Origin: Promethearchaeota archaeon Loki_b32
Lineage (GTDB): Archaea; Asgardarchaeota; Lokiarchaeia; Sigyniarchaeales; SOKP01
Direction of reading: 5' to 3'
DNA: 64,000 bases
NCBI GenBank assembly: GCA_005223125.1
Contig: NJBH01000006.1
Location: 46,316 to 110,315 of the forward strand
The position numbers and the translations under genes are program-made. Below are positions 19,075 to 32,634 of this stretch, piece by piece; position 1 is the stretch's first letter; every line of letters begins with the position of its first letter. Below the pieces are notes generated by a model, which saw nothing but the letters and a program-made list of their open reading frames with translations, was not told the DNA's origin and did no database searches.

Positions 19075-20724
19075 TTATTTAGAGATTTTAATTTCTGGAA
19101 TTTCTACGATGAAATTACTTCCTTTAGTATAATCATTTTCTAAACGATTTTCAACCCAAATTTTACCATGATAACTTTCAATAATCTTTTTCACAAGTGA
19201 TAAGCCAATCCCCATTCCTCTTATATTATTATCTTTATTGTGTCCCTTTTGAAAAATGGATTTCTTTTTTTTGTCAATAATACCAAAACCATTATCTTTG
19301 AATTCCATTTTAACATAATTTTTCTTATCAAGAAGGGCTTTAGTAATATCAACTTGGATTTTAACAGACTCATTTTGGTTATATTTTATTGCATTATGTA
19401 AGATATTTTCAAACACATCTAATAGAAATTCATTAGCATCGACGTATAATTCATTATTAACTTTTTTGATTTGGATATCTAATTTCTTTTCTTGAGCACT
19501 TTTATTCGCAAATTGTATTGCTTCATCTAAAATCCCATTAATCTCAACTGGTTTTAATGAAATTTCTGATTCTTCAAGTTTAGAAAGTTTGCGTACATTA
19601 TTAATTAATTTGACCCCTCTATCAATTTGATTATCAATTATTTGAAAAAATTCGTCTAAATTATCAAAACTTTCTGATTTTTCTTTCAATATTGAGATTA
19701 ATTCTGCTGAGGATTTAATATTATGAAAAATATTGTTTATATCATGCGTAAAAATATCTTTAAAGAATTCTGCTCTCTCATATGCCTCTCGATATCTATT
19801 TTCAGATTTTCTTAATTCTTGTTCAGCATGTTGATGTTCAGTAATATCTTTAAAGCTCCACACACGTCCTACTCTCTCTTCATCTTGGATTAATGGACAA
19901 GAATATTGTTCGAATATTCTTCCATCCTTAAAAAAAATCATATCATAACCATCCTTGGATGATTTTTCAAGATTTCTAAGTTTTAATAAGAATTTATCTG
20001 GATCATTAAGTTGATCCAAGATATAATTTAATAACTTAGTGAAATCTTTCTGATCAATGACTTCATCTGGAATACGCCACATATAAATGAACCTTTCATT
20101 TAAATGCGTAATAACATTATTTATATCAACAACAAGAATTCCATCTGCTGTCGCTTCGAATGTGGCTCTTAATAATTCTTGACTCTCCTTTAATGCTTTT
20201 TCAGCATTTAATAGTTCAATAGTATCACCTAAGCTTTGACCAAATATCCGCAAAATCACAAAATCCTTACCTTTCCATTGAATTTTCTCTTTAATTTTAC
20301 TAAAACACACAAATCCAGTTATCGCTCTGCTAATATAGATGGGAAAAGCTAAAAAAGATTGGATACTTTGTATTTCCATAAATTTCTTTACTGATTGAGC
20401 TCCATTTGGTAAATTAGAAACATCTCGAATATTAATAAAACTAATTTTCTTAACTTGATTTATCCACCAGGAAATTATTCTAATATCTACTTTTTGAAGA
20501 TTTTTAAGTTGGGAATTAATCCCTTCTGAACACCATTCATGGGTATTTCCAAAAAATTTTTTGTTATCATCAAAAAGAAAAAGAGTAACTCGATCTGCTT
20601 TTGATACAATTCCCATGTCTTCAAAGGATGAATTAATCGCTTCATCAAGATTTACTCTACCTACAAATCGAGAAGAGATACTTGAAATTACTTTTTCAAA
20701 ATTTAATCTACTTTCAAGCGACAC
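19075..20724 (-). CDS. cytoplasmic sensor histidine kinase (GAF-PAS-HisKA-HATPase)
   Basis: H-box FTHDINNIFHNI; N/G boxes NILHNAIKYN and GMGIGLSLVKKI; PAS-like ADGILVVD...RVWSFKDITEH. Confidence 0.8.
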   Translation of the reverse strand: MSLESRLNFEKVISSISSRFVGRVNLDEAINSSFEDMGIVSKADRVTLFLFDDNKKFFGNTHEWCSEGINSQLKNLQKVDIRIISWWINQVKKISFINIRDVSNLPNGAQSVKKFMEIQSIQSFLAFPIYISRAITGFVCFSKIKEKIQWKGKDFVILRIFGQSLGDTIELLNAEKALKESQELLRATFEATADGILVVDINNVITHLNERFIYMWRIPDEVIDQKDFTKLLNYILDQLNDPDKFLLKLRNLEKSSKDGYDMIFFKDGRIFEQYSCPLIQDEERVGRVWSFKDITEHQHAEQELRKSENRYREAYERAEFFKDIFTHDINNIFHNIKSSAELISILKEKSESFDNLDEFFQIIDNQIDRGVKLINNVRKLSKLEESEISLKPVEINGILDEAIQFANKSAQEKKLDIQIKKVNNELYVDANEFLLDVFENILHNAIKYNQNESVKIQVDITKALLDKKNYVKMEFKDNGFGIIDKKKKSIFQKGHNKDNNIRGMGIGLSLVKKIIESYHGKIWVENRLENDYTKGSNFIVEIPEIKISK

Positions 20725-22234: not shown

Positions 22235-22939
22235 ATGGGTGATTTTATGTTATTTTCACAAAATGAAATGGATAATGTCAAAAGAGAAATGGCTAAGTTA
22301 AAGGATAATGTTGTTTTAAAGCTATTTACTGATTTCAAAACCCAAGAAGATGGAACAAAACTAAGAAAATGCATGGCATGTGAGGGTACGTATGAGTTAT
22401 TAAAAACTTTAGAAGAACTTTCTAATGGAAAATTAAAAATTGATGAAATATCTATTGAAGAAAATGAAGAAGAAGCAAAAAAATTCAATGTTACTAAAAT
22501 TCCAGCCATATTGTTTGTAGATCAAAATGATAAAGAAATAATCCGATATTTAGCACATCCAACTGGATCTGAATTTGTACCTTTTCTTAATAGTATTCAA
22601 TATTTTTCAGGAGTAAGACCTTACTATGCGGATCAAATCCTTACTCATCTTAAAAAGATAGATAAGTCAAAAATGAAAATTTTTATAACTCCGACATGCC
22701 CTTACTGTCCGGCCACAGTTCCTGTTTTAACCCTCTTTGCTATCGTTTCTAAGGGAAAAGTTACGGCGGAAGTGATTGATGTTAACTTGAACCCGGATTT
22801 AGGAATGAAATATCAAGTACAAGGAGTACCTCATACAGTTGTCAATGAGAAAGACCACATATATGGAATGTTTAGTCCCCAAGATTTATTAGATAAATTA
22901 ACTAAGGGACAGAGAGATTTTGGTGGAATGTATGCATAG
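22235..22939 (+). CDS. protein disulfide oxidoreductase (PDO, double thioredoxin-fold)
   Basis: Two units with CMACEG and CPYCP redox motifs; paralog of the next gene; start uncertain (ATGs at 22235, 22247, 22268). Confidence 0.75.
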   Translation: MGDFMLFSQNEMDNVKREMAKLKDNVVLKLFTDFKTQEDGTKLRKCMACEGTYELLKTLEELSNGKLKIDEISIEENEEEAKKFNVTKIPAILFVDQNDKEIIRYLAHPTGSEFVPFLNSIQYFSGVRPYYADQILTHLKKIDKSKMKIFITPTCPYCPATVPVLTLFAIVSKGKVTAEVIDVNLNPDLGMKYQVQGVPHTVVNEKDHIYGMFSPQDLLDKLTKGQRDFGGMYA

Positions 22940-22943
22940 GAAA

Positions 22944-22949
22944 GGTGAT
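22944..22949 (+). promoter_or_regulatory. Shine-Dalgarno-like GGTGAT 8 nt upstream of the PDO-2 ATG
   Basis: aaaGGTGATtcataaaaATG. Confidence 0.5.
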
Positions 22950-22957
22950 TCATAAAA

Positions 22958-23641
22958 ATGTCTTCAGACGATCGATATAAGGAAATAATTAGACGTGAAA
23001 TGTCTAAATTAAAAAAGCCTGTTAAACTGAAGGTTTTTACTTCACAAAGAATAGGACCAAATGGAACTCAAATAAGAGCTTGTATGGATTGTGGTGAATT
23101 TATGGCTTTATTAAGGATTTATGAAGAAAATTCAAACGGTATGCTGACAATTGAAGAACTTTCAATAGATGATAACCCAGAATTCGCAAAAAAGTTTGAC
23201 ATTAATCGAGTCCCAACAATACTTTTTATAGATGATAATGGTCGAGAGATAATCAGATATTTAGCAGCTCCAAAAGGGGGAGAGATCCAACCTTTCATCC
23301 AGGCTATATTTAACTTTGCAGGAACTCCCAATTATTATGAGGCTACAATAAAAAAAAATCTAGATAGGATACAACCATCTACTATTAAGGTAATGATGAC
23401 AGAGACGTGCCCCTATTGTCCTCAAGTAATTGCTATAAGTAATTCCTTCGCAATTGCTTCTGAGGGGAAGATTAGAACCGTAATTATCGATATCGCGGCA
23501 AATCCTGATATAGGTCAATATTATGATGCTGCTGGTGTTCCATATACTATTATTAATGATCAAAAGACTTTAGTGGGAATGGTTGGGCCAAATGAAATTT
23601 TAAGCGCCTTGATTGGAGGGAATATTCGTGTTCAATATTGA
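22958..23641 (+). CDS. protein disulfide oxidoreductase (PDO) paralog
   Basis: CMDCGE and CPYCP motifs; collinear similarity to 22235..22939. Confidence 0.75.
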   Translation: MSSDDRYKEIIRREMSKLKKPVKLKVFTSQRIGPNGTQIRACMDCGEFMALLRIYEENSNGMLTIEELSIDDNPEFAKKFDINRVPTILFIDDNGREIIRYLAAPKGGEIQPFIQAIFNFAGTPNYYEATIKKNLDRIQPSTIKVMMTETCPYCPQVIAISNSFAIASEGKIRTVIIDIAANPDIGQYYDAAGVPYTIINDQKTLVGMVGPNEILSALIGGNIRVQY

Positions 23642-23642
23642 T

Positions 23643-24572
23643 ATGGAAGCTATAGATTTCGAAAAAACTTATGATCTAATTGTATTAGGGGGTGGACCCA
23701 CTGCGATTGGATGTGCCATTTATGCTGCTCGATTCGCGATGGATGTACTGGTTGTTGGAAAAACTTTTGGTGGATTGATAGCGACTACTCATATTGTTGA
23801 AAATTATCCTGCAATTACATCCATAAGTGGTCAAGGATTAATGGATATGTTTAAAGATCATATGGACTCACTTAGTATCCCATATATATCAGATCAGATA
23901 CGCAGTATTGATAAAGTTGATGATTATTTTGAACTTCGTTCCTTCTTTCAGAAATTTAAAGCACATTCAATTTGCATAGCAACTGGTTCAGAAAGACGGA
24001 AATTAGGTATACCTGGAGAAGAGGAATATACTGGTCGAGGTGTTTCATATTGTGCCACTTGTGATGGTCCCTTTTACAAAAATAAAGTAGTATGTGTAAT
24101 AGGAGGAAGTGATTCTGCTGCTAAAGAAGCGCTGTTTTTAGCACAAAACACCAAAAAAGTATATATTATTTATCGGGGAGAAGATATTAGAGCTGAACCT
24201 ATAAACAAAAAACGTGTATTTGAAAATGAAAAAATAGAAATTATCTACAAAACTAATGTTGTTGAAATAAAAGGGGAAGGGAATGTAAAATCTGTAGTTT
24301 TTGATAATGATATCGAACTCGTTGTTGATGGTGTGTTTGTTGAGATTGGTTCAATTCCTAATTCTGATTTAGCAAAACGTATTGGTGTAGAAACAAATGA
24401 AAAAGGAGAAATTAAAATAAATCGTAAGTCAGAAACAAATATTACTGGTATTTTTGCTGCAGGAGATGTTGCTGATGCCCCTTTTAAGCAAGCAATTACA
24501 GGAGTTTCTGAAGGAGTAATAGCTGCATACTCTGCTTTTGATTATGTTAAAGAAATGAATATAGAATATTAG
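23643..24572 (+). CDS. trxB: thioredoxin reductase
   Basis: GGGPTAIGCAIYAAR, redox CATCDG, GGSDSAAKEA, AAGDV. I chose the ATG at 23643, 1 nt after the PDO-2 TGA, over the overlapping TTG at 23613 in the ORF track. Confidence 0.85.
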   Translation: MEAIDFEKTYDLIVLGGGPTAIGCAIYAARFAMDVLVVGKTFGGLIATTHIVENYPAITSISGQGLMDMFKDHMDSLSIPYISDQIRSIDKVDDYFELRSFFQKFKAHSICIATGSERRKLGIPGEEEYTGRGVSYCATCDGPFYKNKVVCVIGGSDSAAKEALFLAQNTKKVYIIYRGEDIRAEPINKKRVFENEKIEIIYKTNVVEIKGEGNVKSVVFDNDIELVVDGVFVEIGSIPNSDLAKRIGVETNEKGEIKINRKSETNITGIFAAGDVADAPFKQAITGVSEGVIAAYSAFDYVKEMNIEY

Positions 24573-24632: not shown

Positions 24633-24947
24633 TTATTCAATATTTATTTCAATACTATGAAATTCGGGCTCTTTGAACGGTACTTCAATCTTTAAAAGTC
24701 CATTTTTATAAATTGCTTTTGTTTCTTCTGGTTTAATTAGACAGCAAACACCATAGGAACCTATATAAACAGTGTCTTCAGTTTCTCCTTTAATGAAAAA
24801 ACTGTCATCATGCATTTTAAGCTTAATTGATTCTTTCTCTACTCCAGGCAGTTGTATTTCAATTTTATAAATGTTTTGTTCATCATCAGCCCAAGAACAC
24901 ACTTCTGGTGACATTAAATACTTTTCTTCTTCTTTTACTTCAGACAT
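24633..24947 (-). CDS. hsp20: Hsp20/alpha-crystallin small heat-shock protein
   Basis: alpha-crystallin domain YKIEIQLPGVEKESIKLKMHDDSFFIKGE...YKNGLLKIEVP; the internal ATG (MSEVKEEE) is preferred over the track's TTG at 25001. Confidence 0.8.
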   Translation of the reverse strand: MSEVKEEEKYLMSPEVCSWADDEQNIYKIEIQLPGVEKESIKLKMHDDSFFIKGETEDTVYIGSYGVCCLIKPEETKAIYKNGLLKIEVPFKEPEFHSIEINIE

Positions 24948-25130
24948 ATTTTTCACTTCAAAGTTAAAATTATATTTAGATTTAATTATTACTTCAACCA
25001 AAATAACCGATTTAAAAGTTCTTTCTATGGAATATTAAAGAAGGAGTGAATTTTCCTTAAAAATTAAATTGAAAATTTGTTTTTCCTTTAATTTAAAAAT
25101 TTTTAAAAAATATTGAATCGAGGGACGCTT

Positions 25131-26042
25131 TTATTGAGGATTAAGTGTAGGAGATCTAGCTGACATAAGTTCTAATATTTTCTCCCAATATTCTTTTATT
25201 TCCCAGTTTTGTTTTGTTTTTATTTTTTCAGAGACTTCCTTTAATAATTCCCTAATTTTAAGTGAATCAAAATAAGTTAAAATTGGGGCAATCACAGATA
25301 ACATATATTGTTTTTCTCCATATCTTTCATTTTTATCCGGAAATGAATCAAAAAATAGATAACCTTTTTTATCAATATTCTCAATATTAAGTAAAATACT
25401 TTGAGCTTTTGTGATTTTATCGTGTCCATAAATCGAAGTTGCAGCGTGGAACAATTGCTTGCCAATAGTGTTAATAGATAGGGTACAATTTTCTTCAGAG
25501 GGATAACTCTGTTTTAATATTGGTCCTGCAACATCATCCCAATATACCATTAATAAACATAATGATGGTTGATCTTTATTAATAATTGATGGATGCATTT
25601 CTATATTCAAGGATGAGAATATTTGTTTAATTTCCTCATCAATTTGATTGGATTTTTTATATCGAGCAATTTTACCAGAGATTGAAGCTAATAAATCTTC
25701 CTTTTTAAAAGGTTTTGTTATATAATCATCTACTCCTAACATTTTACCCAATCGAATATCTTCAGGAGTAGATTTTGCGGTTAGAAATAAGAAAGGAATA
25801 CGACTCAATTTTGAGTTAGATGAAACAGCAGCAAAAAACTCATAGCCATTCATGACTGGCATCATTATATCGCTTATTATTATATCAGGAACTTTCTCTA
25901 ATGTCAAAAGCATTTTAAGTGCTGTTTTACCACTAATTGCTGTGATTATATTGTAGTCACTTGCTTCAAGAATAAGTTTTAGATTAAATAAAATATCCTC
26001 GTTATCATCAACAACCATTAACAAGGGCTTTGAATCTGACAT
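25131..26042 (-). CDS. response regulator: receiver domain plus an uncharacterised ~160-aa C-terminal domain
   Basis: VVDDNEDI, phospho-acceptor context IIISDIMMP, LTAKS, ITKPF; the C-terminal half has no HTH or enzymatic motif. Confidence 0.8.
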   Translation of the reverse strand: MSDSKPLLMVVDDNEDILFNLKLILEASDYNIITAISGKTALKMLLTLEKVPDIIISDIMMPVMNGYEFFAAVSSNSKLSRIPFLFLTAKSTPEDIRLGKMLGVDDYITKPFKKEDLLASISGKIARYKKSNQIDEEIKQIFSSLNIEMHPSIINKDQPSLCLLMVYWDDVAGPILKQSYPSEENCTLSINTIGKQLFHAATSIYGHDKITKAQSILLNIENIDKKGYLFFDSFPDKNERYGEKQYMLSVIAPILTYFDSLKIRELLKEVSEKIKTKQNWEIKEYWEKILELMSARSPTLNPQ

Positions 26043-26115
26043 AGGGGAATTTCATCTATATTACTGATATCAATAATATTGATCCAATCAATATTTATAA
26101 TTTTTTTAGATCAAT

Positions 26116-28638
26116 TTAGTATGGTAGAAATAGATGAAATGTCGTTCCTTTCCCTAATTCACTCTCCACAATGATACTTCCTTTATGAGCATCAATTATA
26201 TCTTTTGCGATTGCTAATCCTAATCCTGTGCCAGCAATTTCAATTACATTGCTTGAACGGAAAAATCGTTCAAAAATGTGAGGTAAATCTTCCTTGGAGA
26301 TCCCACGACCACTATCTTTAAATTGTAAGAGAACTCCTGATTTTCCATTTAAATTATATTTACCCTGGTAATTATCAATAGATTTTATTTTTACTTTTGA
26401 ATATTCTTCTGAATATTTAATAGTATTATCGATAATAATTCGGAAAACTTGATCAATCCTTTTTGGATCCCCTCTTAAAAGAATGTTATCATCCACATTA
26501 ACTTCAAAATCTATATTCTTTTCCTGACCTATTGGTTCCATGAGATATAAGATTTCATTAATAATCTCTAAAGGTTTATATTCTTTCCATTCCAATTCTA
26601 ATCGATTTTCATCAATTCTTGAAATTGTTAATATATCCTCTGCTAAATCATTAAGTAGATGAATATTTTTTGAGATTCCATCCATTAATTTCTCTTCTAA
26701 ATCTTCGTTGAGAACATCTTTATGTTTAGTTAAATATTCCATCGACATTAATAAGACTGTAATTGGAGTCCGTAATTCATGTGAAACAGTTGAAATTAAT
26801 TGTGATAATCTCTCTTCTGCTCTTTTACGTTCTGTTATATCCAATCCATAAATATTTACATAATCCACATTTTTTACGGGAGTAACAACCAAAGTGTAAG
26901 TTCGACCATTTAAATTTACTTCAAGATCTATATTCACTTTTTTACTTAGAACTCTATTAATAGAGTCCTTTAATATTTTAGGGGTTGGACTTCCTTCTTC
27001 AATATTGAATAGCTCTCTACCCATTTTATTAGTGTAGATTACCAGTTTATTATTTATTCGCAAAACGGGGTTAGGATTTTCAGATGGGAACTTTGATAAA
27101 TTTCTAATTTTTTCTTCAGCTTTTTTTCTTTCAGTGATGTCTCTAAATGTCGATTGAAAAAATATCCTTCCAGATAATTTTATAACTTTTGCTGTTACAA
27201 AAACATCTATTATTTCTCCATTTTTTCTACGGAATTTTGTTTCAAAATCATCTCTACCTTCTCTCAATAATTTTTCTACATGAGCTTTTGTCTCTTCTGT
27301 GTTTTCTGTCATATCATAGTCATTTATTTGTAATTTTTGGAATTCATCACGCGAATATCCTAAAATATTACATACTACATCGTTAAATTCAACTGCTCTG
27401 AAAGTTTCAGGATCTAAAATAACAATACCATCAGGAAACTGTTCAAAAGTTGTACGATAACGAAGTTCAGCTTCTTGAAGTAGTGATTCAGATTTTATTT
27501 TCTCAGTAATATCTGTGGCAACACTAAGAAGAGCGGAATATTTTGCATCAACATCTTCTATTGGTTGTTCAACTATCCAATATGTCTTTCTACCAGCATG
27601 TAAATCAAAAGTTCGTTGATATGCTCGACTGGTCCCATTATTAATTGATTCACGATTACTAATTAAAAATTCATTAGCAATTTTTTCAGGGAACACATCA
27701 TGTAGAGTTTTTCCAATGAAATCTTCTGGATTTCCACCTAATTCCTCTGCAGCCTTTTTATTTACTAATAAATAGGTGCCTTTTTTATCAATCATTGTAA
27801 TACCTGCTCCAGAATGCTTAATAATATTTCTTAGTTCTAATTCACTTCTCTTGATTTTTCTAAATAATAGATCAAATGGTTCCTCGATTCCAATTTGAAT
27901 AATAGCTTTATATAAAAGGAAAAATGCGATTATTTTAAAGATATGTCCAATAAAATTAGGAAATTCATAAGCCCCGAAATAAAATGTGAACGCTAATTCG
28001 GCGATCATCGTTGCTATGATTGAGGTGATTATAAGATAGAAGACTTTTTTATCAAAATCCACTCTATTTTTAATAATAATCAAAAGACAAGTTAAAAGTA
28101 TGAAATTTATAACATATTCACTTACAATTTTAAACGACGTTAATCCAATACCATCAATATAACAAATTGGAAAAGAATTTGTAAAAATAAGTACTATTAA
28201 AATTATTGATATTATCAAATAAAAAATAGGAAGAAAAATTGATTTTACACTCCTTTTAATCATTAATGAAGCGAAGACACAAGATCCTGCTTGAAGATAT
28301 CTGGCTGCTATCCATAAAGATGTCGCAAGATTTGTCCCCCAATCCTCAAAAATCGGCAAACCAGGATAAGCAAGAGTATGAATTACGTCAATAATTCCGA
28401 TAAAAAGTGAGGATACTCCAAGAATTGAAAAAAAGGAATTTTTCATATATTTACGGGAGTTCCACCCAACTAAAAATACGCCTCCTGCAATTACAATACT
28501 AAATATCTCCGCGATACTATGAAATAGTAAGTAATCATAGAGACTTGTAAGGTAGACTAATAAGATTCCTATAAGAAGAACAGAAATTTCTATAATTTCT
28601 AGATTCAGTTTATGTGAAGATTTATGTTCTTTTGACAT
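26116..28638 (-). CDS. membrane sensor histidine kinase (multi-TM N-terminus, several PAS domains, HisKA, HATPase)
   Basis: ~250-aa polytopic N-terminus; three PAS-like blocks each ending in a DITE(R/K)K-type segment (TDITEKIK, RDITERKK, LDITERKR); H-box VSHELRTPIT; GTGLGLAIAKDI. Confidence 0.85.
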   Translation of the reverse strand: MSKEHKSSHKLNLEIIEISVLLIGILLVYLTSLYDYLLFHSIAEIFSIVIAGGVFLVGWNSRKYMKNSFFSILGVSSLFIGIIDVIHTLAYPGLPIFEDWGTNLATSLWIAARYLQAGSCVFASLMIKRSVKSIFLPIFYLIISIILIVLIFTNSFPICYIDGIGLTSFKIVSEYVINFILLTCLLIIIKNRVDFDKKVFYLIITSIIATMIAELAFTFYFGAYEFPNFIGHIFKIIAFFLLYKAIIQIGIEEPFDLLFRKIKRSELELRNIIKHSGAGITMIDKKGTYLLVNKKAAEELGGNPEDFIGKTLHDVFPEKIANEFLISNRESINNGTSRAYQRTFDLHAGRKTYWIVEQPIEDVDAKYSALLSVATDITEKIKSESLLQEAELRYRTTFEQFPDGIVILDPETFRAVEFNDVVCNILGYSRDEFQKLQINDYDMTENTEETKAHVEKLLREGRDDFETKFRRKNGEIIDVFVTAKVIKLSGRIFFQSTFRDITERKKAEEKIRNLSKFPSENPNPVLRINNKLVIYTNKMGRELFNIEEGSPTPKILKDSINRVLSKKVNIDLEVNLNGRTYTLVVTPVKNVDYVNIYGLDITERKRAEERLSQLISTVSHELRTPITVLLMSMEYLTKHKDVLNEDLEEKLMDGISKNIHLLNDLAEDILTISRIDENRLELEWKEYKPLEIINEILYLMEPIGQEKNIDFEVNVDDNILLRGDPKRIDQVFRIIIDNTIKYSEEYSKVKIKSIDNYQGKYNLNGKSGVLLQFKDSGRGISKEDLPHIFERFFRSSNVIEIAGTGLGLAIAKDIIDAHKGSIIVESELGKGTTFHLFLPY

Positions 28639-28712
28639 TATTTAAATATCTTTTCTATTATATTTTTAAATTTCCAACCTATTTAAAATTGAAACTAACT
28701 TACCAAAATTAT

Positions 28713-29261
28713 TTAGAAAACTGGAGATTTTTCAAAGAGAGCATATATCGTTGTTTTATATAATGTATAAATAAAACCTGGTGGTATGATATCTTTTATT
28801 TTTATAATAAGTTCATCAATGACCTTTTCAGTTAAATTTCGATCAAATGTTAAATCTGGATCAAATTTATGTAAAAAGATAGAAAAATCAATACCGTTTT
28901 TTATTTCAATTGAGTTTATCACTTTCTTCATGTATTCTAGCGCGATATGATAACGCTTAACGTCTTGGATATCAATTACATATATAATTTTACTTGTTCC
29001 CTTTATATACTTATTAAAATCGTTGAAATAATCATCAAGATACGCTTGCTGACCCCCAAGATCCCAAATAGAATATTTTGAATTTAAGACTTCAAAATCT
29101 TGCACATCAGGACCTTTCGTAGGCATTGGAGTGTTAAAAGCAGAGATACCCTTGATACCCTTCAAACAATTTAATATCGTTGTTTTCCCACTATTATCTA
29201 ATCCAATTAATACAATTTTAATTGAATCGACTCTTGATTCATTGGTTTTTAAAGTTTTCAT
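28713..29261 (-). CDS. Arf/Sar/Rag-like small GTPase
   Basis: G1 GLDNSGKTT (Arf-like GLDxAGKT), G3 WDLGGQ, G4 variant LHKFD. Confidence 0.8.
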   Translation of the reverse strand: MKTLKTNESRVDSIKIVLIGLDNSGKTTILNCLKGIKGISAFNTPMPTKGPDVQDFEVLNSKYSIWDLGGQQAYLDDYFNDFNKYIKGTSKIIYVIDIQDVKRYHIALEYMKKVINSIEIKNGIDFSIFLHKFDPDLTFDRNLTEKVIDELIIKIKDIIPPGFIYTLYKTTIYALFEKSPVF

Positions 29262-29300
29262 AATTAATCAAAAATATGTTTGAGCATTTTTTTTTAAGAG

Positions 29301-29639
29301 CTATGTTAATGTATCATGTATATCAACATCTCTTATATCTTTGAATTTCTCTTTATATATTTCAGCTACAAGTGAATTTATTCTGTTAAGCAAATTAAAG
29401 ATACTTAGATTTTTAATTTTGTAGTATTTTATATTGTTTTTTTTCTCATATTCGATGAGATTGTTATCATAAAGCATGTTTAAATGCTTTGAGATAGTTG
29501 ATTGTGATTTATTTAAATTTTTTTTAATTTCTAATGAGCTCTTCTCACTTCCCTTTAAGAGATCTAAAATATCTAATCTTGTAGGATCTCCTATGATCTT
29601 TAGGAACTCAATAACACCTCTTCTAAATTCGCTCATCAA
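29301..29639 (-). CDS. ArsR-family winged-helix regulator
   Basis: LKIIGDPTRLDILDLL...SQSTISKHLNMLYDNNLI. Confidence 0.75.
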   Translation of the reverse strand: MMSEFRRGVIEFLKIIGDPTRLDILDLLKGSEKSSLEIKKNLNKSQSTISKHLNMLYDNNLIEYEKKNNIKYYKIKNLSIFNLLNRINSLVAEIYKEKFKDIRDVDIHDTLT

Positions 29640-29768
29640 ATACCAGAAGCATGTTTTATTAAAATTTTATTTTTATAACTTTTTAAACCTTATTTTAATA
29701 GTTTATTAATATTTCATTATTAATACGAAAATCACAAAGATTTAAATATTATGCTATCGTTATATTGT

Positions 29769-29788
29769 TATATCGCTATATCGCGATA
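29769..29788. promoter_or_regulatory. tandem TATATCGC x2 overlapping the perfect palindrome TATCGCGATA; candidate operator
   Basis: Read directly from the sequence; lies 44-63 nt upstream of the preferred ATG (29832) of the first Lrp-like gene, as a GC-containing island in AT-rich spacer. Confidence 0.25.
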
Positions 29789-29831
29789 CATGAATATTGA
29801 TCTTTTTTTTATCAAAAGATGGAGAAAGAAA

Positions 29832-30344
29832 ATGATAAGTGAAAAAATAGGAATGGATGATATTGATTGTAGAATTATGGATTTAATTCAAAGAGAACCA
29901 AGTCTTACACATACTCAGATTGCAGAACATGTGAATCGCAGTCAACCTACCGTAGGAATGCGGGTCAAAAAGCTGGAGAAGTTAGGGGTTTTGAAATATC
30001 AGGCTGGTGTAAATATCAAAACAGCAGATCTATATTTTGCTAGGATTGATCTTCAAACAAAGAACCCAAAAAGGATATTTTCTATGGTGGAAAACTGTCC
30101 ATTCATGCTCACCGCGTTCAGACTGAGCGGAAGTACAAATATTAGTATTTTAGTAGCAGGTTCATCCTTAAAGGACCTCGATCATGTAGTAAATCATCAT
30201 CTTCGAGGTGATCCAGAAGTTATTACTGTCCATATGGATATTATTGAAGATGTTGCAGGAGATCTTGTTTTACCAATAGATTTAAACCTTGGTTATAGTA
30301 AAATCGATTTAGAAAATTACTGTTGTGGCAAATGTAAAGATTAA
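29832..30344 (+). CDS. Lrp/AsnC-like regulator with Cys-containing C-terminal tail (paralog 1)
   Basis: HTH IDCRIMDLIQREPSLTHTQIAEHVNRSQPTVGMRVKKLEKLGVL plus a RAM-like domain; the ATG at 29832 with GGAG 7 nt upstream is preferred over the track start 29751. Confidence 0.7.
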   Translation: MISEKIGMDDIDCRIMDLIQREPSLTHTQIAEHVNRSQPTVGMRVKKLEKLGVLKYQAGVNIKTADLYFARIDLQTKNPKRIFSMVENCPFMLTAFRLSGSTNISILVAGSSLKDLDHVVNHHLRGDPEVITVHMDIIEDVAGDLVLPIDLNLGYSKIDLENYCCGKCKD

Positions 30345-30383: not shown

Positions 30384-30623
30384 TTAATCTATTATTAATA
30401 CTTTTAATTTACATGCTGTAGTACAGATGTGACATTTAACACATCTGTCTTCGCGATCTTCCACCACGATACATTTAGGGATAGAGTCTTTATTAATAAC
30501 CGTGTAAATTCCTCTAAAGCATGCTTCTTCGCAAGAAAAATCTTTACATTGCGCACACTTAGAGGATTCAATATGATGAAATTTATAACTTTCAATAGTG
30601 TCTCGATTGTCTGCTTCACTCAT
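30384..30623 (-). CDS. small 2x[4Fe-4S]-type ferredoxin
   Basis: CAQCKDFSCEEAC and CVKCHICTTAC. Confidence 0.7.
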   Translation of the reverse strand: MSEADNRDTIESYKFHHIESSKCAQCKDFSCEEACFRGIYTVINKDSIPKCIVVEDREDRCVKCHICTTACKLKVLIID

Positions 30624-30715: not shown

Positions 30716-31384
30716 ATGACTTCAGAAAAACAACCGATACTTGAGATACCCAACTTAATGAAAGAATTGTTTGTATCACGTCCTAATCGCTTTGTTGGTG
30801 AAATAAAATACAAAGGAAAGATAGAGTCTGCTCATATTCATGACCCCGGAAGATTGAAAGAATTACTTATTGAAGGGGCTGAAGTGCTATTTACACACTC
30901 ACGAGGAAAGTTAAAATATTATATTAAAGCTGTTTATGATGATGATGAATGGGTTCTTATAGACACCGCTTTACACTCAAATATTGCTCAAAAAGTTTTT
31001 GAACTTTTACCAGAGTTTTCTAAAGTGAAAGAAATAAGAAGAGAAGTAAAACTAGGGAATAGTAGGATAGATTTTCTTCTTGATGATGTACCATTAGAAG
31101 TAAAGGGTGTGACTCTAGTTAAGGAAGGTATAGCACTGTTTCCGGATGCTCCTACTGAACGAGGAGCTAGACATGTCAGAGAAATTATTGAACATAATGG
31201 AATTATATTTTTCTTAATCTTTCGTAAAGCAAGGTGTTTTTCTCCAAATTTAGAGATGGATCCCAAGTTTTCCAAAAATTTAAGCGAAGCAAGAAAAAAA
31301 GGTATTAAAATTTTGGCAGTTCAGATTAGCTTTGATGGAAAAACAGTTTATTACGAGGGGAAAGTAGATCTGATGTTATTTTAA
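30716..31384 (+). CDS. sfsA: SfsA-family nuclease (sugar fermentation stimulation protein homolog)
   Basis: SRPNRFVGEI...AHIHDPGRLKELL...RIDFLL...EVKGVTL...FPDAPTERGARH. Confidence 0.85.
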   Translation: MTSEKQPILEIPNLMKELFVSRPNRFVGEIKYKGKIESAHIHDPGRLKELLIEGAEVLFTHSRGKLKYYIKAVYDDDEWVLIDTALHSNIAQKVFELLPEFSKVKEIRREVKLGNSRIDFLLDDVPLEVKGVTLVKEGIALFPDAPTERGARHVREIIEHNGIIFFLIFRKARCFSPNLEMDPKFSKNLSEARKKGIKILAVQISFDGKTVYYEGKVDLMLF

Positions 31385-31510: not shown

Positions 31511-32050
31511 ATGATATCGGATAAATTAAAGCTTGATGAAGTTGACAAGCAAATAATTGCTCTTGTTCAAGAGGATCCTAACCTTACACATACAGAAATC
31601 GCTTCAAAAATAAACAGATCGCAACCAACCGTTGGTATGCGTATAAAAAAGCTGGAAAAAAATGGTATTCTCCAATTCCAACCCGGTATCAATTTTAAGA
31701 AAGTTGATTTGTACCTCGCAACGGTTGAGTTAAAAACTAAAAATCCGGATGAAATTATGGATATGGCTAAACACTGCCCATTCATGTTAAACGCATTTCG
31801 CTTGAGCGGGGAACACAATATTTGCATATTACTTGCAAGTTCTAAGCTTCAGAAACTTGATAATATTGTTAATTATCATTTTCGAAATAATCCTCAAATA
31901 AGCAGTGTTTCATTGGAAATTGTCCTTGATATTGCTAAGGATTTCATTTTACCGATTGATTTTGATTCAGAAGATCATGACCCTACACTCGAGGATGGAT
32001 GCGGGGAGAAGTGTCGTTGGAAACTTGCAAAAAATAAGAAACTAGGGTAG
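31511..32050 (+). CDS. Lrp/AsnC-like regulator with Cys-containing C-terminal tail (paralog 2)
   Basis: VDKQIIALVQEDPNLTHTEIASKINRSQPTVGMRIKKLEKNGIL; collinear with paralogs 1 and 3. Confidence 0.7.
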   Translation: MISDKLKLDEVDKQIIALVQEDPNLTHTEIASKINRSQPTVGMRIKKLEKNGILQFQPGINFKKVDLYLATVELKTKNPDEIMDMAKHCPFMLNAFRLSGEHNICILLASSKLQKLDNIVNYHFRNNPQISSVSLEIVLDIAKDFILPIDFDSEDHDPTLEDGCGEKCRWKLAKNKKLG

Positions 32051-32067: not shown

Positions 32068-32634
32068 CTAGGTTTCTTTTTCAATATTAAATTTAAATTT
32101 AGGAATTTCATCTTGAAGCAAGCAATCTGGCCCACAATATCTCCCATCAAAGTTTTCGATTTGAAAATCTATGGGAACAACAAAATCATGGATTGATTCA
32201 ATTAAAATATTGGTTTTAACATTAATAACATTATCATCACGTCTGAAACACAAATCTACGAGTTTTTCAATGGTTTGAAGATTTGATGCTGCGATAAAGC
32301 ATAGTACGTTAAATTCCCCCGAGGTTTTAAATGCATGGTTAATAAACGGACAATTTACAATTTTCTTAACAATTGCTTCAACATCTTTAGTAGAAAGATA
32401 AACTATAGCAACTTTGATATCAACTTTTTTAATATTGAAGCCTACTTGTTTTGTAAGCAGGTGTTTTCTTTCTAATTTTAGGATTCGAGCCCCCACAGCA
32501 GGTTGAGATTTTTCAATTTCCTTAGCTATATCACTGTGAGTGATACCAGGGTTCTCCTCAATCATTTCAATGATTTTCTTGTCGGCCTCATCTATAGAAA
32601 GCAGATCTGAAAAATTTTTCTTCTTCATATCCAT
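32068..32634 (-). CDS. Lrp/AsnC-like regulator with Cys-containing C-terminal tail (paralog 3)
   Basis: ADKKIIEMIEENPGITHSDIAKEIEKSQPAVGARILKLERKHLL; collinear with paralogs 1 and 2. Confidence 0.7.
   Translation of the reverse strand: MDMKKKNFSDLLSIDEADKKIIEMIEENPGITHSDIAKEIEKSQPAVGARILKLERKHLLTKQVGFNIKKVDIKVAIVYLSTKDVEAIVKKIVNCPFINHAFKTSGEFNVLCFIAASNLQTIEKLVDLCFRRDDNVINVKTNILIESIHDFVVPIDFQIENFDGRYCGPDCLLQDEIPKFKFNIEKET

Follow-up and report, generated by a model that had tools for sequence, protein, structure and literature searches.

A stretch of 64,000 nucleotides (nt) from contig NJBH01000006.1 of Promethearchaeota archaeon Loki_b32, referred to here as the window, harbors a minus-strand cluster of four genes. 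They encode an ArsR/SmtB-type winged-helix regulator (ArsR), an Arf/Rag-like small GTPase, a MASE3-PAS membrane sensor histidine kinase (HK), and a response regulator (RR) in which a receiver (REC) domain is followed by an output domain. The output domain was predicted by structure modeling to be a longin domain of the FLCN/NPRL2/SMCR8/C9orf72 type and not a DNA-binding domain. With moderate confidence, we read the cluster as one module in which a two-component phosphorelay would set the nucleotide state of the GTPase through a longin-type GTPase-activating protein (GAP).

The original prediction, made from the DNA letters alone, described four consecutive minus-strand open reading frames (ORFs) spaced by 39–74 nt, and an ORF check reproduced them with gaps of 39 nt (ArsR/GTPase), 74 nt (GTPase/HK), and 73 nt (HK/RR). 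The gene identities it had given (ArsR, Arf/Rag-like GTPase, PAS HK, and RR) were confirmed by Pfam and NCBIfam matches far above the curated cut-offs. It had also proposed a functional link between a His-Asp relay and the GTPase, with the output domain of the RR as a candidate guanine nucleotide exchange factor (GEF), GAP, or effector. The wiring is supported, computationally, by the longin-fold prediction, the conserved neighborhood, rearranged gene orders, and GTPase–longin fusions. A role of the output domain as a GAP, a GEF, or a platform is supported by the predicted longin fold, the nearest structures of which are GAP longins for Rag and Arf GTPases, and by their GP motif and arginine-finger position. 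The 64-kb window holds one small GTPase, one REC-longin regulator, and one longin-type domain.

No significant Pfam match was obtained for residues ~130–303 of the RR. A search with residues 125–303 retrieved 127 proteins, nearly all of ~300 aa and with the same architecture of REC plus this domain; all were from Asgard-labelled or uncultured archaea, which bears out the Asgard attribution of the original prediction, and were 52–91% identical in the output domain. A single-sequence AlphaFold model of the full RR was unusable (pLDDT 37) and was replaced by an AlphaFold2 model of residues 130–303 based on a multiple alignment of 103 sequences (pLDDT 82, pTM 0.76). Its β-β-α-β-β-β-α-α topology is that of the longin fold, with strands at model positions 33–40, 44–51, 85–91, 96–106, and 114–123 and helices at 61–76, 128–146, and 153–165. 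The RR ends about eight residues past the longin helices, and the cluster has no second longin gene.

When the model was compared with the PDB using Foldseek, the best match was human NPRL2 (E = 2.6e-5), followed by yeast Npr2, FLCN (TMq 0.59), FNIP2, and the Lst4 longin. These five proteins filled ranks 1–10, with E values from 2.6e-5 to 1.8e-3. The identities of the structures were confirmed by sequence (NPRL2 in the top GATOR1 entries, Npr2 in 8adl_S, and FLCN in 6ulg_L and 6nzd_H). The top matches, all with E up to 2e-3 and a probability of 1.0, also included DENND10, a Lokiarchaeal longin (8yqg_B), and one chain from the complex of C9orf72, SMCR8, and Arf1. None of the top 50 matches was a SNARE, TRAPP, adaptin, or SRX longin, and PAS/LOV folds appeared only at E > 0.02.

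A 2025 survey that covers 15 Asgard longins (PMC12290439) characterized GAP longins by an arginine finger and by a GP motif that opens strand 2 or immediately precedes it. It reports that the GP motif is absent from non-GAP longins, that C9orf72 has a WD motif five residues upstream of its GP (W33-D34...G38-P39), and that some stand-alone Asgard longins have GAP-longin features. It also asks what the Asgard GTPase targets of the GP-motif longins are. In the RR, W168-D-D-V-A-G173-P174 (WDxxxGP) in the β1/β2 turn corresponds to both motifs, with a WD...GP spacing identical to that of C9orf72, and G173-P174 open strand β2 in the model. R240 in the β4-β5 loop (NERYGEKQYM) is a candidate arginine finger, as judged from conservation and alignment. 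W168, G173, P174, and R240 were invariant in the 103 homologues. The same four residues were found in 56 of 56 locus copies, including the most distant, with D169 replaced by N or H in a few copies and D170 by E in two. Across 104 representatives of the family (50% identity clusters), the W, G, and P were retained in 92–96% and the loop arginine in ~83%.

A broad profile of the longin family was aligned with eukaryotic GAP longins using hhalign, with 30 shuffled controls, all of which gave E ≥ 0.056. C9orf72 was matched at E = 1.1e-4 over 127 columns with WD...GP in register. SMCR8 was matched at E = 7e-4, with GP placed on G68-P69 and R240 on the arginine finger R147. The matches to single NPRL2 (E = 3.5e-3) and FLCN (E = 0.48) sequences were not significant on their own; GP fell on G20-P21 of NPRL2, and the local alignment with FLCN set R240 on R164. 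The narrow profile gave nothing significant against single FLCN and NPRL2 sequences (E = 0.26–0.48). Probabilities were no higher with profiles restricted to vertebrate SMCR8 (31%) and C9orf72 (15%), probably because the database matches were low-diversity exon fragments. As the relationship was not detected by Pfam or PDB sequence searches, homology rests on structure plus motifs; on that basis, homology of the RR longin to the eukaryotic GAP longins is strongly suggested, not proven.

Conservation of the neighborhood, which the original prediction had put forward as a check, was found from both the RR side and the GTPase side. The RR-side scan, using one genome per species, yielded 50 loci, all in Asgard metagenome-assembled genomes (MAGs). 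The order ArsR-GTPase-MASE3 kinase-RR was collinear in 32 of these; the other 18 comprised one locus cut inside the GTPase gene, six cut too near the RR to inform, two inverted, and nine divergent. In the two inverted loci (L050 and L053), the ArsR-GTPase pair lies directly downstream of the RR in a convergent arrangement. The full cluster was present in every locus with an RR identity of at least 55% and enough DNA, and in loci such as L006 and L041 the flanks differ and the core is kept together with a divergent Lrp gene. For the GTPase side, metagenome contigs were scanned, and loci were taken as informative when the GTPase was at least 45% identical and at least 4 kb lay downstream; a REC-longin RR was found in 16 of 16. 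Two further arrangements, both with GTPase-RR proximity retained, were seen: a divergent one (L091) and the order HK-RR-RR-GTPase with tandem REC-longin genes (L103 and L104). GTPase paralogues of 39% identity or less had no linkage to a kinase or RR. Because the arrangement recurs in dozens of independent Asgard contigs, chance juxtaposition is excluded.

Several loci had features of their own. The two REC-longin genes between the kinase and the GTPase in L104 (1479–3414; also in L103) both have WD..GP and VRGG, and the longins of their two products could pair with each other as those of NPRL2-NPRL3 or C9orf72-SMCR8 do. In a Helarchaeota-labelled MAG, one longin copy ends a 560-aa protein with a non-REC N-terminus (L047, 5807–7489), and a REC-longin gene is followed by three small-GTPase-like ORFs within 4.5 kb (L055, 8198–12054), none of which is orthologous to the window GTPase. 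In five loci (L017, L024, L026, L037, and L038), MAGs labelled as Hermod-, Thor-, Hod-, or Odinarchaeota have RRs 60–74% identical to those of Promethearchaeota-labelled MAGs, with extended synteny in common. Given such identity and synteny across phylum labels, some record labels may be unreliable, and the true phyletic breadth is uncertain.

An exhaustive profile search gave 198 representatives of the longin family, mostly REC-longin proteins. Two of the others join the domain directly to a small GTPase, as assigned by Pfam: P0142 has a Ras-type GTPase domain and a longin of the RR family with WDDRIGP and YRGDRKNYM, and P0178 has an Arf-type GTPase domain joined to a longin of the RR family. 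These direct fusions are independent evidence that the longin family works on small GTPases. Hybrid kinase-REC-longin proteins (P0162 and P0168) were also found, and the remaining partners (in P0125, P0129, P0135, and P0266) were PAS, RsbRD_N, DUF1638, and a HATPase_c kinase core without REC. The family appears to be a widely reused signaling output module.

In the mechanism that we propose, the MASE3/PAS kinase would phosphorylate D58 in the REC domain of the RR. The phosphorylated REC would probably dimerize, pairing two longin domains in the manner of eukaryotic longin dimers, and this pairing would expose or assemble a surface for the switch regions of the neighboring GTPase. R240 would then be inserted beside the catalytic Gln71 (DLGGQ) and stimulate GTP hydrolysis, so that the RR would act as a phosphorylation-gated GAP. 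More speculatively, the ArsR encoded just upstream of the GTPase may read the state of the GTPase, which would give a transcriptional output to a pathway otherwise without a DNA-binding response regulator. Tentatively, we propose that such a chain of kinase, REC-longin GAP, GTPase, and ArsR is a compact, prokaryotic-style equivalent of the eukaryotic GATOR1/FLCN-Rag axis and may be related to the ancestor of that axis. If true, no longin GAP gated by a His-Asp relay would have been known before, nor any small GTPase relaying a two-component system to transcription.

A number of observations weigh against this reading. The hhalign match to the GAP longins is weak (probability 15–57%, E 1e-4 to 2e-3). 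No Pfam match to PF11704, PF06218, or PF15019 was obtained for the window protein or 27 family members, and a profile search of PDB sequences with the C-terminal domain returned no genuine match. C9orf72, the best sequence match, is not the arginine donor in its own complex. The eukaryotic GAP longins are heterodimers in larger complexes with DENN/C-terminal domains, which are absent here, and most longin/roadblock platforms are GEFs or scaffolds. In the nine divergent loci of the RR-side scan, a divergent REC-longin clade (44–51% identity) has an adjacent kinase and no orthologous GTPase nearby, and in L093 an ArsR-GTPase pair occurs without an HK-RR within 6 kb. Most of the complete loci may come from one Asgard class, in which case part of the conservation would be inherited synteny. 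Finally, the GTPase co-varies more with ArsR than with the longin. This comparison comes from a mirror-tree analysis of pairwise distances over 27 loci, which is confounded by shared history and gave r = 0.68 for HK-REC, 0.66 for ArsR-GTPase, 0.44 for GTPase-longin, and 0.27 for GTPase-HK.

Together with the loci in which ArsR and the GTPase are inverted as a unit or occur without a kinase, these correlations suggest two sub-modules, ArsR + GTPase and HK + RR, that are usually joined. Taken further, they would fit two separate modules that merely travel together, with the REC-longin directed at another target (another GTPase or a non-GTPase). The two strongest co-variation pairs, the separation of the pairs as units in L050 and L053, the lone ArsR-GTPase pair of L093, the REC-longin paralogues without a nearby GTPase, and the fusion of the longin family to PAS, RsbRD_N, and DUF1638 all fit such a separation. 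We nevertheless regard it as unlikely: the two units are neighbors in four different gene orders and wherever an orthologous locus is informative, and the direct fusion of GTPase and longin domains shows that members of this family act together with small GTPases. The main rival keeps the same wiring but assigns another activity: the phosphorylated longin would serve the neighboring GTPase as a GEF, as an effector specific for one nucleotide state, or as a platform for recruitment, as most longin and roadblock dimers do (TRAPP, Mon1-Ccz1, Ragulator, and MglB), and not as an arginine-finger GAP. All of the linkage and fusion evidence is equally compatible with this rival. In reviews quoted in PMC10933270 and PMC13408092, longin/roadblock platforms act mainly as GEFs. 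DENND10, a DENN family member, was among the Foldseek matches, and RomR/RomX were lately reassigned from GEF to effector of MglA. We consider this alternative somewhat improbable, as the nearest structures are specifically GAP longins, and nothing in the family is better conserved than the GP motif (reported absent in non-GAP longins) and the loop arginine.

It is far less probable that the C-terminal domain is a PAS/GAF-like module for ligand binding or dimerization, with the gene order being inherited synteny and no link to the GTPase. GAP longins were matched about three orders of magnitude better than PAS folds, at a probability of 1.0, and the motifs match specifically; loci with different flanks and rearranged loci also retain the core. 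What this explanation has on its side are the PAS/LOV folds among the lower Foldseek matches (E 0.02–0.08), the topological relatedness of the longin, profilin, PAS, and GAF folds, and the wider synteny (Lrp, ferredoxin, SfsA, and thioredoxin reductase), which is also kept in many loci. The features of the cluster and of its two immediate neighbors are collected in Table 1.

Table 1. Features of the four-gene cluster and its immediate neighbors, in positions of the window
Feature	Position	Strand	Basis or remark
Lrp/AsnC-family regulator	29751-30344	+	HTH_24 2e-13; AsnC_trans_reg 3e-4, below Pfam cut-off
ArsR/SmtB-type winged-helix regulator	29301-29639	-	112 aa; first gene of cluster
Arf/Rag-like small GTPase	28713-29261	-	182 aa, G domain only
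GTPase G1, GLDNSGKT	29181-29204	-	
GTPase G3, DLGGQ	29049-29063	-	Switch II WDLGGQ, catalytic Gln71
GTPase G4, HKFD	28860-28871	-	Rag-type
GTPase G5, KTTIY	28743-28757	-	
MASE3-PAS membrane sensor HK	26116-28638	-	840 aa; Pfam PAS_9 8e-22
MASE3	27877-28545	-	Pfam 1.3e-76
First PAS of HK	27499-27837	-	Pfam
Second PAS of HK	27109-27462	-	Pfam; third PAS weak
HisKA	26608-26808	-	Pfam 5.7e-11
HK phospho-His620, in SHELRTP	26779-26781	-	H-box intact
HATPase_c of HK	26122-26472	-	Pfam 4.9e-25
RR	25131-26042	-	303 aa; REC, linker, longin-type output
REC domain of RR	25680-26018	-	Pfam Response_reg 2.8e-23, aa 9-121
RR phospho-acceptor D58	25869-25871	-	Conserved acidic pocket
Longin-type output domain	25158-25565	-	Predicted structure
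W168-D-D-V-A-G173-P174	25521-25541	-	β1/β2 turn; WD and GP motifs of GAP longins
R240, candidate arginine finger	25323-25325	-	β4-β5 loop; conservation and alignment
HSP20 small heat-shock protein	24633-25001	-	Pfam 2e-9; downstream of RR

The GTPase combines features of two families. Arf was its top Pfam family (1.4e-23, 83.7 bits), and Gtr1_RagA was also matched (1e-14, 55 bits, cut-off 22). HKxD in G4 and a TSIWD-like G5 are Rag-type motifs. The window GTPase matches the HKxD G4 and the G5 features of Rag/Gtr proteins but is without their C-terminal roadblock heterodimerization domain; with the Arf family it shares a WDxGGQ-type switch II and the top Pfam score but has HKFD in place of the NKxD G4 and lacks the myristoylated/amphipathic N-terminal helix. 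Its N-terminus (MKTLKTNESRVDS) is hydrophilic and has no Gly2. The G motifs were invariant in 17 orthologues, with H131, K132, and D134 fixed and G5 reading KT(T/S)IY. The best matches in a PDB sequence search were 8yl2_A (4.5e-23) and 8zla_A (4e-18), both deposited as "GTP-binding protein" and both having HKFDP and T(T/S)IY in common with the window GTPase; Arf1 and Arf6 came next at ~1e-14.

ArsR was identified by Pfam HTH_5 (2e-13), NCBIfam HTH_metalloreg (1.9e-17), and NF033788 (62.8 bits against a cut-off of 55), and its gene almost always sits directly upstream of the GTPase gene. It shares the HTH_5-type winged helix-turn-helix with the ArsR/SmtB metalloregulators but has no cysteine in its 112 residues, which makes a classical metal-sensing role unlikely. 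In L093 and L105–L107, ArsR and a GTPase were paired with no kinase or RR, including pairs with distant GTPase paralogues (38–41% identity). From gene order and sequence, the pairing suggests a small GTPase that works with a winged-helix transcription factor.

The whole HK was matched by NCBIfam MASE3_PAS_HK at 4.6e-106. Among the 103 homologues of the RR, D13, D58, and K110 did not vary, and D12 and T88 were kept in at least 90%; the linker between REC and the longin-type output domain is flexible. By sequence, the kinase (intact H-box and ATPase) and the receiver (intact D58 pocket) are competent. The HK adjoins the RR in all loci, and the two co-vary as a cognate pair with putative phosphotransfer between them. 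An orphan PAS/HisKA kinase with no adjacent RR is encoded ~5 kb from the cluster (19075–20724, minus strand), and L001 has a 546-aa PAS/HisKA kinase at a similar position.

By eye, the intergenic sequences inside the cluster contain no T-run of T6 or longer, and T6/T5 follow the RR gene and T8/T6 the HSP20 gene; the pattern is compatible with co-transcription, as weak evidence in a genome of ~29% GC. A short palindrome without mismatches (ATTGAT-TGG-ATCAAT) lies in the HK-RR intergenic region (26043–26115). Neither the Rfam scan nor the tRNA scan of the window gave a match.

The divergent Lrp gene, separated from ArsR by a 111-bp intergenic region (29640–29750), is its neighbor in virtually all complete loci, rearranged loci among them; it is conserved but may lie outside the mechanism. 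Near the module there are three paralogous Lrp/AsnC regulators (29751–30344 and 31511–32050 on the plus strand and 32068–32634 on the minus strand), whose C-terminal tails hold cysteines (CCGKCK, CGEKC, and CGPDC). A small ferredoxin-like ORF (30384–30623) and SfsA (30716–31384) are located beside the Lrp genes, and this synteny is kept in many related loci. On the other side, the true start of HSP20 is probably an internal ATG. HSP20 is present in most loci and absent from L006/L041, L040, L043, L007, L008, and L028, all of which have the four-gene core, and it is thus a frequent but dispensable neighbor. Beyond it, two paralogous thioredoxin-fold proteins and a thioredoxin reductase, whose ORF overlaps the second of them by 29 nt, are encoded on the plus strand (22235–24572). 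This redox/stress set (the thioredoxin-fold proteins, thioredoxin reductase, and HSP20) stands beside the cluster in most loci, not all; it may point to redox or proteotoxic stress as the physiological context, or be no more than synteny.

Small GTPases and longin/roadblock proteins are numerous in Asgard genomes, but the regulator–GTPase pairs and their upstream inputs are largely unknown. The broader statement of the original prediction, that the regulators of Asgard GTPases are largely unknown, needs qualifying, as fusions of NPRL2-like longins to two-component domains in Asgard archaea were already described by Liu et al. 2021 (Nature; bioRxiv 10.1101/2020.10.19.343400, Fig. 5c). In the proposal of those authors, growth control in Asgard archaea draws on both prokaryotic two-component systems and "eukaryotic" regulators. 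They gave no cognate GTPase or conserved operon for the fusions, and most such genes lay outside conserved neighborhoods. The REC-longin fusion is therefore known; our literature search found no paper describing a cognate GTPase or a conserved GTPase-containing cluster.

A related system is that of the Asgard Rag-/Arf-like GTPases fused to longin/roadblock domains (Tran et al. 2024, PMC10933270; structures 8yl2, 8zla, and 8yqg), and 8yl2_A and 8zla_A are the closest solved relatives of the window GTPase by sequence. In the window, the G domain stands alone, and a response regulator carries the longin. In MK-D1, GTPase genes and longin/roadblock genes generally do not share operons (PMC10933270), which makes it difficult to match a regulator to its GTPase. 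The window cluster is an exception to this rule and offers the 2025 survey's question a specific, testable answer in two small soluble proteins: a 182-aa GTPase and a 303-aa RR with a switch at D58 and the residues R240, G173/P174, and W168.

The eukaryotic complexes with the same predicted fold are GATOR1 (NPRL2-NPRL3-DEPDC5, acting on RagA/B), FLCN-FNIP (RagC/D; Lst7-Lst4 in yeast), and C9orf72-SMCR8-WDR41 (Arf). Longins of this kind turn off Rag/Arf GTPases in the nutrient signaling of eukaryotes. The RR longin shares with their GAP longins the GP before strand 2, the β4-β5 loop arginine, and an Arf/Rag-like partner GTPase. It differs from them in being part of a single 303-aa protein with no DENN/C-terminal domain and no obligate heterologous partner, and its input is the attached REC domain, whereas theirs comes from amino-acid sensors or lysosomal scaffolds. 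Compared with the eukaryotic Rag system, the GTPase lacks the C-terminal roadblock and the GAP role of the RR is predicted. If GAP activity is true, the catalytic mechanism of GATOR1, FLCN, and C9orf72-SMCR8 would predate eukaryogenesis and would first have been under prokaryotic phosphorelay control.

Among prokaryotes, the nearest functional analogue in bacteria is the Myxococcus xanthus circuit of MglA, MglB (a roadblock GAP), RomR (REC), and RomX with Frz input, which also joins a small GTPase, a regulator of the roadblock/longin superfamily, and a REC protein. It differs in that REC and the GTPase-regulating fold are on separate proteins, the fold is roadblock and not longin, MglA belongs to another GTPase family, the role of RomR as GEF or effector is disputed, and no classical HK-RR pair is in an operon with the GTPase. 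In archaea, the Thaumarchaeota REC-NitrOD3 proteins (Roadblock/LC7-related; Galperin et al. 2018, PMC5847659) are response regulators with an output domain of the roadblock/longin superfamily, but their fold subclass and phylum are different and neither a GP/Arg signature nor a linked small GTPase has been reported; that paper lists REC-roadblock-like regulators in Thaumarchaeota and no REC-longin. Relative to the two-component fusions of Liu et al. 2021, the present analysis adds the GP/Arg signature, the conserved order ArsR-GTPase-HK-RR with rearranged versions of it, and the fusions of this longin family to GTPases.

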